Source: Candidatus Gracilibacteria bacterium S5_H10
GTDB taxonomy: Bacteria; Patescibacteriota; Gracilibacteria; Absconditabacterales; Absconditicoccaceae
Direction of reading: 5' to 3'
NCBI GenBank assembly: GCA_019248075.1
Contig: JAEHHG010000001.1
Span: 9,294-73,293, forward strand
Length of the DNA: 64,000 nt
In this document: one piece after another, positions 6,929 to 58,215 of the stretch
Numbering within the stretch: the stretch's first letter is position 1
Layout of the letters: each line of letters opens with the position of its first letter
Position numbers and translations under genes: made by a program
The notes under the pieces: generated by a model
Database searches by the model: none
Told to the model about the DNA's origin: nothing
What the model saw: the letters and a program-made list of their open reading frames with translations, nothing else

Positions 6929-7867
6929 ATGCTAAAAAAATCACTTACAAAAATCTTTAAAAATGATCTTTCTTCCCTACTTAAAACATCATGGAAGAAT
7001 GTATTAGGAGTAAGCATCTTCATAGGATTTTTATTATTTCTCTTAAATATCTTTTTGTGAATATCTCTTTATGCCAACCAATTTACTGGTGAACTCAAAG
7101 ATAGACTCGGTATGTATTTCTATATAAAAGAAACTACTGACGAAACTAATGATACCTATAAAAGAGTCATCACACTAAAAGATGAATTAGAAGCAAAAGG
7201 ACTAAAAGTAATGTTTTCATCTAAAGATGATGCTTTAGCATTTTTACAAAAAAAGATTCCTGATGTCGTAAATAATTTTGAAAAGTTTGGTATAGACAAT
7301 CCATTACCAGCGACATTATATGTAATGTTTGATAGTGACAGCAAGTATGAGTCCCTCAAGACTATTATCCTTGCCAATAAAGATATTATTCTCAATACCA
7401 AAGATATTGATGCATGATCGACACTTAAGCAACAAGAGAATAGAGTCCTTACTATCATAAATTTAAGTAATTTTGTTGTGGGACTTTCTTATGTAATCAT
7501 TGCTATATTATTTCTCATAATCGTTTCATTCTTATGATTCCTTTTGAAAAATATTTTTCATACCTTTCATAGAGAACTTGAAGTCAAAAAAATCTTATGA
7601 GCAACGTACAACCAGATCATCCAATGATTTGTATCTCTTACGCTAAATGTGCTCTGATTTTCATTCCTTATTTGTTTAGCATTACTTTTGTTTAGCTGAA
7701 TAACTGTCAATTTCTATATCTACTCTCTTTTTGATATAACGCTTTGGAATGTTTTTAATAATATCGCCTTGATTATCGGTATCTTTATAGGTGAAATCGT
7801 TATTGTTACTTTATTTGGATTTTGATTCTCTCATTTCTTTGCTCGTGCCTTAAACAAGAAATTATAA
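6929..7867 (+). CDS. ftsX: cell-division permease FtsX-like
   Basis: N-terminal TM segment, a periplasmic domain (track ORF 7112..7417) and three C-terminal TM segments, once four UGA codons are read as Gly; ends at TAA 7865. The partner ftsE is not adjacent. Confidence 0.75.
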
Positions 7868-7945: not shown

Positions 7946-8620
7946 CTAATATTGTATTTGTATTCCAGGTCACATAGTAGGAGCTATATATATTTTCTTG
8001 ATCAATTTTCCTTTGACTCCAGTTGGTTTATTTTCTTCTAGTGCTTTAAGGAATGCTTTGATATTTTCCTCTATCTGTGTTTCAGTAAATGACATTCTTC
8101 CTATAGCTGCGTTTATATTTCCTGTCTTATCAAGTTTAAATTCTATCTTTCCTTTTTTGAATTCTTCTACTGCTTGTGGAATATTTGTTATTACTGTTCC
8201 TGCTTTTGGAGATGGCATAAGTCCTTTTGGTCCAAGCTGTTTTGCAACAGGTGCCAAATCTCTAATATGTTCTGGAGTAGTAAGCAATATATCAAATTCA
8301 AATTTTCCTGCTTTGATATCAGCAATCAATGTTTCAGTCCCTACGATATCTGCTCAAGCTTTTTTTGCTTCAGCTTCATCTGAAGAGAATACAGCGATTC
8401 TTTTTGTCTTTCCTGTTCCATGAGGAAGAATAGTTGTTCCTCTCATCATTTGATCATTGTACTTAGCATCAGCAAAAGTTTTTACTGCAATTTCTACTGA
8501 TCCATCAAATTTTGTATATCCAGTTTTTTTAAGCAAATCAATTGCTTCTTTGAGTGGATACGCTTTTGTAGAATCTACAATTTTAGCAGATTCGCGATAC
8601 TTTTTTCCGTGGTTTGCCAT
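7946..8620 (-). CDS. rplA: 50S ribosomal protein L1
   Basis: MANHGKKYRESAKIVD...GTGKTKRIAVFS...GPKGLMPSPKAGTV. The UGA at 7970 is read through, giving the conserved C-terminus TMGPGIQIQY; ends at TAG 7946. Confidence 0.95.
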
Positions 8621-13684: not shown

Positions 13685-13742
13685 GCACCAATAAAATACA
13701 ATATAAAAACACCTATCGAAATCCTTTCTCTCGTCTTGGCCT

Positions 13743-13869
13743 CATGCCGGTGTTATTGTTTGCAACCGGCATCCATACAAAAGTGCGTTAGTAGCATAGA
13801 TGTGGATTCCGGCTGCAATTTCTTAACGCCGGAATGATGTACATGTATGAGGATGCCGGAATGATGTCC
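13743..13869. repeat. cluster of GC-rich palindromic miniature repeats (family 1)
   Basis: catgccggt-N13-accggcat; tggattccggctgcaatttcttaacgccggaatgatgt; gatgccggaatgatgtcc. Near-identical copies occur at 42317 and 21358. Confidence 0.65.
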
Positions 13870-13876
13870 TGCATTG

Positions 13877-55343: not shown

Positions 55344-55382
55344 TACATAGTTTCGCTTGAATCCTATTGTTAAATCAGTTTA

Positions 55383-55412
55383 ATACAGACGATTTATTTG
55401 TCTGTATTTTTC
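55383..55412 (+). terminator. rho-independent terminator or attenuator
   Basis: An 8-bp stem atacagac/gtctgtat followed by a T-run, only 3 nt upstream of the next ATG. Confidence 0.55.
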
Positions 55413-55414
55413 TT

Positions 55415-56716
55415 ATGAAAAAAATCATCGCCATTATAGCATTACTTGCGGGAAGCATATTCCTTTTTACCACTACTTCAGCACAATTTACTTCCACCAC
55501 TTGTGAAGGACAAAGTCACTGCTCTGCTCCTACAAAATGAGTAAATTATAGAAATACTATTATCTATCTCTGAGAACAATGAGAAGAATTCGATCTCGGA
55601 TTTCAACAAAATTTTGATAAACAAAAAATTTTACTCCAGGAAATTTTTATCTCTGAAAATAAAAGTTTTTCTGAAGAAGAGCTATCAAATAAGATATTGG
55701 ACAATCTTGAGGAAATCAAAAAAGCAAATACGTTGATTATCAATACTGCAAATTTTGATATTCTTTTCCAATCGCTAGGAAAAATAGATGCTATAACTCC
55801 ACTTAATTTAGAATGAAAAACGATATATCTTGTAACCAATAGTAATAAATTTTTTCTCAAAAGAACCCTTGCTAAGCAAATCAAATCCATAAAAACAGAA
55901 AAAATATATACGCTATCTCAGAGTAAATTGCTCAATTTTCTTTCTACCCTTTCATTGGGAAAAATAGATAATAATGAAGACTATATAACGTCATTTTCGC
56001 TTTCATTTCATGAAACACCAAAATTTCTTATTATTTCGTATCTTGTAGATCATCTTATCTATAACTGATTTCCTATCGAGCTCATTGGCATGTTTTTATT
56101 ATTATCAATATGAGCATTGGTGATAAGTGTCCTCAGGCAAGTTGTTTGATTTTCTGTCTTTGGTATTTATATTCCGCTTTTGTTTGCACTTTCGTTGTTC
56201 ATGCTATGAGTACCATTAGGATTAACTTTATTAGCGATAGGATTGATTGCAAAAATACTTGTAAGACTTTTCACCAAAAAAATGTATCTGCTTCACAACG
56301 CCAAAACATCACTACTGGTTATGCTTTATTTTTTTATTCTCTTGCTGTTTTTGGGACTCAATACAATATTTGATCTCCCCTTTATAGATATGAATATTTT
56401 CAATAATGTATTTATCATCTTACCACTCGTCTTTGTAATCATAATCAGTGATAAAGTATTTAACGACTGATTCAAACTTTTTAGCAAAGGACGATGGGTA
56501 GCATTTATAGAATTTTTAGCTGTTTCATTCGCTGTATTCGGGCTTTTCTATCGAACTGGACTCAAACATACCTTATTGGCTTTCCCAGAACTTTTGATTC
56601 TGATCTTCTTTCTCAATATCGCTGTCGGAAGATTTACCGGACTTCAACTTCTCGAATATTTCCGTTTCATGCCATTACTAAAAAACTCCTCATGGACTGA
56701 GGAGGAAGAGGAATAA
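55415..56716 (+). CDS. signal peptide plus extracytoplasmic domain plus 7-TM module, resembling the 7TM domain that accompanies RimK-related ATP-grasp ligases; encoded C-terminus is EEEEE
   Basis: MKKIIAIIALLAGSIFLF signal sequence, about 200 aa of soluble domain, then seven hydrophobic helices (track fragments 56243 and neighbours); ends ...LLKNSSWTEEEEE, TAA 56714. Confidence 0.6.
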
Positions 56717-56837
56717 ACCATTCCAGCGTCATTCCGTTTCCTTTATTTTAACGTCATTCTCGCGAAAGCGGGAATCCATCTTGCTCTATAGCCCCAATTG
56801 GATTCCAGATCAGGTCGGGAATGACGTAATGTGGTTT
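56715..56837. mobile_element. MITE-like element, about 120 bp, with imperfect terminal inverted repeats (related to family 1)
   Basis: Left end ataaaccattccagcgtcattcc; the reverse complement of the right end is ataaaccacattacgtcattccc. An internal hairpin is acgtcattctcgcgaaagcgggaatcc. No ORF. Confidence 0.5.
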
Positions 56838-58215
56838 ATTTAAAATATCTTTTTTTCGTAGCTAACCATCGATCTGACTGTCTGGTGAGCTCTTGTTGGT
56901 CTTCAGCGTTTAAAAGGAAATGTTTGACTGCTTCTTCCAAGAAGATAGTATTCTGACTTCATTTGCAGACAATAAGAAATTCATCACCAGCTTCTTTGAG
57001 TATCTTCTGAATATGTTTTCCAGCGATATTTGCATCATAGAATTTTTCTACATTCTTCGGATCGTATCAAACCTTTTCCAGCTCATCCGCTAAATAGTCC
57101 GCCATATATTTCCCCACGAGAATCACACGATCAGCGACTTGTGAAACATATCCTGCTATCATTCTATGTTCTCTTTCGGTCAAATCACCCAGTTCTCTCA
57201 TATCTCATAGTACGAGAATAATTTTTCTGTTTGGGAACAATTGCGATTGTATATTGTGCGCCGTGTTGATAATTTTCCTGACACTGAGTGGTGAAGCATT
57301 ATAAGTAGAATCTATGATGACGCTATTCTCTATACCATGGAAAATAGAAAGTCTTCCTGGCTGTAATTGATACTTGAGTTGAAGCTGTTCATGAGAACCA
57401 TTTCTCAAGATAGGATCTTCTGGTCTAGATTCCAGCTTAGCATATTTATAGTCTAGAATTCATGCAATAGCGAGTCATACTCCTATATAGCCATAATTTG
57501 CTTTTCCGAGAATATTGGTACTGACAGCATATTTTTTTTCTTTGATCCACGTATGGAATTGTACTCAAATTCATCCTTTGAAATCGGCGAGATAGAATTG
57601 TTCATCCTTGAAATGGATATCCGCGGTGATATCATTACCTTCCGTCTGATAGGTCAGATAATCTATTTTCAATTGATCTTTGAGCTGGAGTGCATAAGCG
57701 TCGTTAGCATTGAGGAATCCTATTTCCAATGTATTTTGCAACATCTTCACTTCTTCTTTTGCTATCTCTGCGGGATTACCAAATTGCTCTGAATGGACGG
57801 AATCTATAGCCGTAAAAATACCGATATGCGGTTTTGCTATAGTCACAAGAAAGTCCATCTCCCCAGGACGATCAATCCCATATTCGAGAAGGATAATATC
57901 GTAAGGTTTGGATCAGAAAAATCTTTTTCGGATAAGTTTCAAAAGTGTTGTAATGAAATTTATGATCGTCGGTTCCCGCTTTTCTATCTGAAAAATAGAG
58001 AGCGACATCCCGAGTTCTCCGTTGAAGTTTTTGGGTGAAGTATATATTTTTTTGTTGGGAATAAATTTTTGCAATGTCTGATAAACAATCATACGGCAGG
58101 AAGTTTTTCCTACACTTCCGTTGATTCAGATAATCTGTGGATTGTGTTTGTTGATATATGCATGTGCCAACTTTCCCAGCATTTTATAATATCATCGTAA
58201 TAACTTTTTTTTCAT
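56836..58215 (-). CDS. murF: UDP-N-acetylmuramoyl-tripeptide--D-alanyl-D-alanine ligase
   Basis: GINGSVGKTS (P-loop), the Mur-ligase middle domain, and VLGDMRELGDLTEREH, which is a MurF hallmark; ends at TAA 56836. Confidence 0.8.

Follow-up and report, generated by a model that had tools for sequence, protein, structure and literature searches.

A doublet of CGTC-tagged hairpin repeats, probably a gene-less derivative of a GIY-YIG nuclease cassette, between two convergent genes of a Gracilibacteria genome

The 119-nt spacer between murF and the gene of a 7TM-type membrane protein, which converge in the genome of Candidatus Gracilibacteria bacterium S5_H10, holds a pair of inverted hairpin repeats that we identify, with a probability of about 85%, as a non-autonomous CGTC-REP doublet, likely derived from an ssn nuclease cassette by loss of the open reading frame (ORF) and probably persisting as an orphaned passenger. 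Judged from its sequence, the element is a further member of a known and widespread group of hairpin repeats, i.e. those of the CGTC/NTS type, residing in a tiny TGA-recoded genome; it is not, as had first been posed, a mobile element that rewrote the ends of two essential-pathway genes. Its bearing is on a question left by the 2013 and 2025 papers on these repeats (cited below), namely how they multiply: doublets align to nuclease cassettes minus the ORF, and a cassette locus that is filled in same-genus genomes is gene-less here.

The window, i.e. the whole stretch of 64,000 nucleotides that was analysed, belongs to an assembly of 0.95 Mb in 258 contigs that is 74% complete. The features to which a sequence-only reading had drawn attention between 56700 and 56850 (9-nt inverted repeats, a central hairpin and the TAA stop codons of both genes) are all present there, and the locus is laid out as follows, where A, B and C denote hairpin types and G-numbers denote same-genus genomes (congeners).

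55367..56716, + strand: upstream gene for a 7TM_transglut-type membrane protein of 449 aa (ORF in code 25; stop TAA at 56714-56716)
56686..56704, - strand: terminator-like hairpin CTCCTCAGTCCATGAGGAG with a T6 tract after it, read on the murF strand and located inside the 3' end of the 7TM gene (consensus scan)
56712..56720, no strand: left arm AATAAACCA of the outer inverted repeat, containing the 7TM stop; flank DNA, outside the repeat family
56727..56750, + strand: solo head CGTCATTCC (56727-35) with a 15-nt linker; recurs in the family, on the 3' side of the A-type hairpin in the case of the G011 cassette
56751..56778, + strand: left hairpin unit, A type, matching the NTS consensus at 26/28 positions
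56779..56798, no strand: 20-nt spacer between the hairpin units (alignment to the G011 cassette)
56799..56827, - strand: right hairpin unit, B type, ACGTC-ATTCCCGA-CCTGA-TCTGGAAT-CCA (sequence and alignment)
56832..56840, no strand: right arm TGGTTTATT of the outer inverted repeat, containing the murF stop
56836..58215, - strand: downstream convergent gene for a MurF-type Mur ligase of 459 aa (ORF in code 25; stop TAA at 56836-56838)

The core of the element (56727-56828) is a tags-outward doublet of CGTC-tagged REP hairpins. The left unit consists of the CGTC tag (56752-55), the stem arm ATTCTCGC (56756-63), the loop GAAA (56764-67), the stem arm GCGGGAAT (56768-75) and the tail CCA (56776-78), with one T.G pair in the stem; its hairpin ACGTCATTCTCGCGAAAGCGGGAATCC lies at 56751-56777. 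The 20-nt core fits the consensus of the Neisseria repeat dRS3, ATTCCC-N8-GGGAAT (PMC1797815). The right unit, with its CGTC tag at 56826-23 on the - strand, has a stem of 8 bp in which one position is mismatched, a loop of 5 nt and again the tail CCA; it is one base off the genus consensus. Both units show an unpaired CGTC, a stem of 8-9 bp that starts with A-T/T-A, a loop of 4-5 nt and CCA, i.e. the features by which such REPs are recognised. The inner repeats CGTCATTCC (56727-56735) and GGAATGACG (56818-26) are complementary at 9/9 positions, and CGTCATTCC occurs five times in the window versus 0.2 expected, a count that 0 of 100 shuffles reached. In G014, the head that is orthologous to the solo head of the window starts a full C-type hairpin. 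An Rfam scan of 56500-57000 with E values up to 10 returned only chance-level matches to eukaryotic miRNAs and snoRNAs.

Hairpins containing CGTCATTC recur across the genome, and the build of the family can be written as (A)CGTC - ATTCC.. stem - loop - ..GGAAT - CCA, with variable stem interiors and loops; compensatory pairs (CCCGC/GCGGG, CCGGC/GCCGG and CCCGA/TCGGG) are found among the 350-odd genus units listed. The units pair with their tags outward and their CCA tails inward around a related spacer, most commonly CCA-gtttgctttgta-TGG, and a search of the genome for copies yielded at least ten doublets of this same build, all of them intergenic. A strict pattern finds 11 units in the own genome and 0-49 units per genome in 30 congeners (49 in G010, 40 in G005, 36 in G011 and 5 in G001), the reversed-pattern control giving zero. 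The distribution extends well outside the genus: the exact 25-mer core GTCATTCCCGCGAAAGCGGGAATCC is present in at least 120 stretches from many phyla (Proteobacteria, Chloroflexota, Planctomycetota, Acidobacteriota, Omnitrophota, Nitrospirota, several candidate phyla and a Rickettsia endosymbiont), with an inverted partner 31-84 nt away in about one-third of the 25-mer stretches listed. The own genome also carries a second hairpin type, GTCATTGC..GCAATC, in at least 24 copies.

The proposal that the terminal repeats would recur in other copies thus holds in part: the inner CGTCATTCC is a feature of the family, and the outer ATAAACCA is found with no other copy. Similarly, the flanks of the 11 copies share no common direct repeat that could represent a target-site duplication. 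The description of the element as MITE-like is apt in so far as it belongs to a dispersed, non-coding, hairpin-forming family and looks like a gene-less derivative, and fails with respect to the private outer repeat and the lack of a consistent duplication.

The origin of the doublet is suggested by cassettes in related genomes. In Neisseria, NTS (CGTCATTCCCGCGMAVGCGGGAATCYRG), which is a subset of dRS3, is the target of SsnA, a single-domain GIY-YIG enzyme of 94 aa (cd10448) that binds NTS solely in single-stranded DNA (ssDNA), cuts a few bases upstream of it and has been shown to restrict incoming transforming ssDNA; such motifs (SRM) lie on both sides of the gene in 42% of the Ssn homologues, and the NTS-ssnA-NTS build has been likened to an insertion sequence (PMC11893778; Chenal et al. 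2025, Nat Commun 16:2388). A corresponding arrangement exists in G011, where two hairpins bracket an ORF of 94 aa with a GIY-YIG domain (Pfam PF01541, E 2e-13) whose product also weakly matches the UPF0213 protein structure 1zg2. Eleven closest homologues of this nuclease (at least 60% identity, from 10 congener genomes) were compared: in 10 of the 11 a hairpin ends 32-37 nt ahead of the ATG and another, inverted, starts 9-39 nt past the stop, the eleventh being cut by a contig end. No such hairpins flank seven distant GIY-YIG paralogues. In three MAGs, one gammaproteobacterial, one of Omnitrophota and one of Anaerolineales, homologues of the nuclease are bracketed by hairpins in this manner. 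We had considered the pairing of hairpin and GIY-YIG gene as novel, a view that was dropped since the pairing is published (PMC11893778).

Read in cassette orientation, the window element aligns with the G011 cassette at either end, the ORF excepted, and for that reason the term MITE-like is a fair one. The alignment covers the B unit at 28/29 positions and, on the other side, AGCAAGA-TGG, the A unit, the linker and the solo head. The spacer end ..tagagcaaga matches the stop-proximal junction TAG-caaga of G011, with 7 nt after the stop included, so that the window spacer ends with the bases that follow the stop codon of the nuclease gene. Within the genus, cassettes occupy 2-3 syntenic loci, a distribution that speaks for vertical inheritance and against active hopping. 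One of these, the cassette locus of G009 and G017, is orthologous to C1:22797-23309 in the own genome (~13740-13870 in the window), where two hairpins lie 27 nt apart with no gene between them. Together, this gene-less locus and the alignment to the cassette ends imply that doublets can arise by ORF loss. G011 (36 units) was also set against G001 (5 units) to find filled and empty sites, but with a coding identity of only 76-80% and unalignable spacers the comparison revealed neither a target site nor a duplication. No NTS-type ssn gene was found in the own genome (74% complete), nor was a close ssn homologue found in the assemblies of the REP-rich G010 and G005. The only ssn homologue detected in the own genome lies partly at the end of contig C1 and partly on contig C225, and is flanked by hairpins of the second type, GTCATTGC..GCAATC.

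The course of events that we favour would be as follows. Two CGTC-tagged REP hairpins with their tags outward and CCA inward, of the same type as Neisseria dRS3/NTS and as SRM, would have bracketed the gene of a 94-aa single-domain GIY-YIG nuclease (ssn) in an ancestral cassette, whose ORF was then lost. By analogy with the Neisseria enzyme, each hairpin would, in ssDNA, be bound by its cognate Ssn, which would cut a few bases 5' of the CGTC tag, so that the two cuts would fall immediately beyond the ends of the element, one on each strand. If the doublet affected transcript 3' ends at all, this would be incidental. The copy in the window is probably orphaned and slowly decaying, because both hairpins have a stem defect and an NTS-type ssn was not found.

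More tentatively, SRM doublets in general may be REPIN-like non-autonomous offspring of SRM-ssn-SRM cassettes that arise through precise ORF loss and spread in trans by way of Ssn cutting ssDNA just outside each CGTC tag, with a preference for convergent gene ends, which are prone to hairpins. Two SRM families might then have colonised the murF/7TM spacer independently, namely one of the ATTCC type (present here as well as in G010 and G014) and one of the ATCGC/ATTGC type (in G011), and the ATTCC population of the own genome might have been orphaned by loss of the nuclease gene. Binding and cleavage of the hairpin as ssDNA are known for the Neisseria and Wolbachia enzymes only (PMC11893778).

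The closest described relatives of the doublet are the CGTC-1 and CGTC-2 REPs of Di Nocera, De Gregorio and Rocco (2013, BMC Genomics 14:522; PMC3733652), which include Neisseria dRS3 and Rickettsia RPE-6. These REPs have a CGTC tag, a stem of 8-9 bp starting with AT, a loop of 4-5 nt and a CCA tail; tags-outward (head-head, HH) dimers with conserved spacers predominate among them, the distance to the 3' ends of convergent ORFs is mostly under 20 bp, and they have no dedicated transposase (PMC3733652). The present repeats resemble them in tag, stem, loop, tail and the formation of HH dimers with related spacers, in their intergenic position within 20 bp of convergent ORF 3' ends, in the absence of a link to a Y1 transposase, and in that the host genome also has in-frame intragenic copies. 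They differ in their host, which is a code-25 member of the candidate phyla radiation with a genome of ~1 Mb, outside the five phyla listed in 2013 (PMC3733652), as well as in the occurrence of A/B/C hairpin heterodimers and of many copies with extra solo heads every ~20 nt.

To the NTS/SRM-Ssn system the element is linked by the 26/28 match of its left unit to CGTCATTCCCGCGMAVGCGGGAATCYRG, by the NTS-ssn-NTS cassettes with a 94-aa GIY-YIG gene in congeners and by the fact that the repeats far outnumber the gene. It departs from that system in having no gene between the window hairpins, in the loss of the gene at one cassette locus and in the pairing of the own genome's only detected ssn with the other hairpin type. 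With REPIN-RAYT systems (Bertels and Rainey 2011, PMC3116915; bioRxiv 10.1101/2021.07.10.451892) it has in common an inverted REP doublet folding into a long hairpin, a large number of non-autonomous copies, and a gene that is present in one or a few syntenic, vertically inherited copies and flanked by the same repeats; however, the flanked gene encodes a GIY-YIG nuclease and not an HUH/Y1 transposase, and the tag is CGTC and not GTAG. Like classical IS-derived MITEs, finally, it is short, non-coding and hairpin-forming and is probably a deletion derivative of a gene unit bounded by inverted repeats, but unlike these it has no consistent target-site duplication, its parent unit is without a known transposase and its outer repeat is not family-wide.

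The history of the insertion site was followed in the genus, where murF was found in 24 genomes (63-88% identity), 20 loci of which were fetched. In all 20, the C-terminus of MurF lies at the same position, plus or minus one residue, and is followed by TAA; it reads ...KK(K/R)YF(K/G/S/A/E) in the congeners and ...FFTS/FFKQ in the two most divergent ones. In the 14 loci that keep the convergent gene, the 7TM protein terminates in several glutamates, after which comes TAA or TAG (...NSS(G/E/D)xEEEE(E)), so that the C-terminus of the window gene, ...NSS(G/W)TEEEEE, and its stop are conserved there. Between these unchanging stops the spacer varies from 79 to 1213 nt, and where it contains 0.5-1.2 kb of additional DNA the C-termini and stops are the same. 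Its content varies as well: in G011 it is an unrelated hairpin doublet of the second hairpin type with ATCGC and ATTGC stems, in G001, G007 and G013 there are AT-rich palindromes, with similar tracts in G004 and G003, in G021 there is another palindrome, and G008 and G009 have two extra genes. Among the congener loci compared, a related element occupies this site in G014 and G010 only; its right flank GACGTAATGT(G/A)GT-TTA is common to the window, G014 and G010, and its left flank to the window and G014. In a murF tree, which represents one gene and has modest support, these three element-bearing genomes do not form a clade. The stop codons of both genes are thus ancestral, and the murF/7TM spacer is a permissive site in which palindromic elements of several kinds replace one another. 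What the comparison brings out is the fast turnover of palindromic DNA between stop codons that do not change.

Such a position next to two gene ends raises the possibility that the doublet was co-opted as a 3'-end element and is maintained by selection, whether it terminates transcription in both directions, stabilises the transcripts or stalls ribosomes. The RNA of the + strand folds at -46.6 kcal/mol (z = -4.5; 0/200 shuffles were as low) and that of the - strand at -39.8 kcal/mol; a T-rich tract follows the long composite hairpin, on the + strand only; some palindrome is present in every short congener spacer; REPs, which for the most part are located within 20 bp of convergent ORF 3' ends, are thought to act as RNA (PMC3733652); and E. 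coli REPs near stop codons can stall ribosomes, as cited in a passage of PMC12306157. Nevertheless, we regard this explanation as possible but unlikely, given that the spacer sequence is unconserved across the genus, that two of the ten doublets of the genome lie between divergent ORFs and that Ssn is inactive on RNA (PMC11893778). A simple terminator consensus scan, moreover, calls no site in the window element; the site that it calls, on the murF strand, lies within the 3' end of the 7TM gene (56686..56704). This hairpin is a candidate murF terminator that would be independent of the repeat, although one site versus 0.6 expected is weak on its own. The underlying coding sequence is kept in congeners.

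More doubtful is the idea that the doublet serves as a working site of a host-domesticated Ssn, which would cut incoming ssDNA there and lower recombination at murF/7TM. It would be in line with the published function of NTS and SsnA (PMC11893778), and it is favoured by the presence, in both window units, of the critical bases, i.e. GTC in front of the palindrome and C behind it, and of one ssn homologue in the own genome. That homologue, however, is flanked by the other hairpin type, the NTS-type cassette locus has no gene in the own genome, both window hairpins have stem defects, and natural transformation is unproven for this uncultured lineage.

Very little speaks for a REPIN mobilised by a RAYT, as Bertels and Rainey proposed for the same Neisseria repeat. 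Two inverted REPs with a short spacer forming one long hairpin do correspond to the definition of a REPIN, and the Neisseria REP ATTCCCGCGCAGGCGGGAATC has been assigned to a Group 2 RAYT (bioRxiv 10.1101/2021.07.10.451892), but the own genome is without Y1_Tnp, and searches of it for RAYT (PF01797) and IS110 (PF01548) found none. Y1_Tnp genes occur in 16 of the 30 congeners, and 11 of the 12 inspected have no REPs of the CGTC type nearby; at the twelfth, in G006, a hairpin array lies ~1.2 kb from the gene. The REP-rich G011 and G043 (97-99% complete) are without Y1_Tnp, and in five distant genomes with the 25-mer the Y1 genes are unflanked in three while two have no Y1 gene. CGTC REPs are likewise unlinked to a dedicated transposase in the earlier survey (PMC3733652). 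We conclude that a RAYT is uninvolved.

The sequence-only reading, according to which the insertion of a MITE replaced the original 3' ends of both genes, so that its terminal inverted repeats now supply the stops, has next to no probability: both TAAs do fall within a perfect inverted repeat of 9 nt by which the hairpin of the element is lengthened, and in another REP superfamily (GTAG) the termini often supply TAG stops (PMC3733652), but the element did not supply the stops here, since related species that lack it have the same stops and C-termini, and these ends stay the same whether the spacer holds unrelated palindromes or extra genes. The preferred reading, a passenger doublet derived from a cassette, leaves the outer repeat itself to be accounted for. 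Its arms AATAAACCA and TGGTTTATT are complementary at 9/9 positions, and an inverted repeat of at least 9 nt in the flanks has p ~0.0004 under a null of random 25-mer pairs of the genome. Five of the nine bases, however, are fixed because both genes end in A-TAA (GAA-TAA and AAA-TAA, i.e. the last codon base plus TAA), and only ACCA/TGGT needs explaining, the chance of which we put at roughly 0.6% from base composition. The complementarity of the outer flanks is unusual and not fully explained. The flanks of the other 10 doublets of the genome lack ATAAACCA and show complementarity of at most 4 nt, and we take ATAAACCA to be private to the window copy. A remnant of a palindromic target was considered as its source and given low weight, the ACCA/TGGT pairing being kept in neither G010 nor G014, which have the element at the same site.

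As to the flanking genes themselves, the 7TM product matches Pfam PF14402 (E 9e-10) and the MurF product matches Mur_ligase_M and Mur_ligase_C. Both frames stay open only under a code in which TGA specifies an amino acid, and in murF TGA falls on conserved glycines of the P-loop (IGINGSVGKT) and of GDMRELG, positions that fit code 25 (TGA = Gly).

The spacer between the convergent murF and 7TM genes, which in the window holds the CGTC-tagged hairpin doublet, undergoes very rapid turnover, since the two congeners that are closest on the murF tree (G011, locus L010, and G001, locus L013) carry wholly different palindromes at this position: the former has a GTCATCGC/ATTGC-type doublet, whereas the latter has an AT-rich palindrome. 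In two further congeners, G008 (L012 = G008:C6, 2920-4053) and likewise G009 (L011), the spacer contains two additional genes:

232-aa ORF, Rossmann/epimerase-like
127-aa ORF, SET-domain-like

On the murF strand, a terminator-like structure lies within the coding sequence of the neighbouring gene, and the congeners keep the coding sequence that forms it:

56686-56704, minus strand, terminator-like hairpin followed by T6, within the 3'-terminal codons of 7TM

Throughout the window the gene frames are open only if TGA is read as an amino acid, and the fact that TGA codons coincide with conserved glycines of MurF is consistent with the use of code 25 (TGA = Gly) by these genes.

At a second locus of the window the hairpins occur without a gene:

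13740-13870 (G000:C1:23033-23163), gene-less hairpin doublet plus solo head, with a 27-nt spacer

Its flanks are orthologous to those of the SRM-ssn-SRM cassette, i.e. the small GIY-YIG nuclease gene bracketed by two hairpins, in G009 (L246) and G017 (L221), and the S5_H10 genome (G000) has lost the nuclease ORF at this locus. That genome does encode a homologue, whose portion on contig C1 lies about 2.8 kb beyond the window end:

G000:C1:76069-76204 plus contig C225 3514-3656 (reverse strand), ssn-like GIY-YIG gene, split by a contig break

This gene is flanked by a second type of hairpin repeat (GTCATTGC..loop..GCAATC-TTA), of which the genome holds at least 24 copies.

Cassettes of G006, G007 and G023 are also flanked by arrays, in this case of solo heads spaced by about 20-30 nt, and at the G011 nuclease cassette a tandem array follows the B hairpin:

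L198 (G011:C13) 8113-8225, four tandem 23-nt units, GGGAATGACGTAAGAGACGGTTC

The same locus carries a separate palindromic repeat of about 125 nt (7084-7208), with some 30 matching places on both strands of G001; it represents a MITE-like family that is unrelated.
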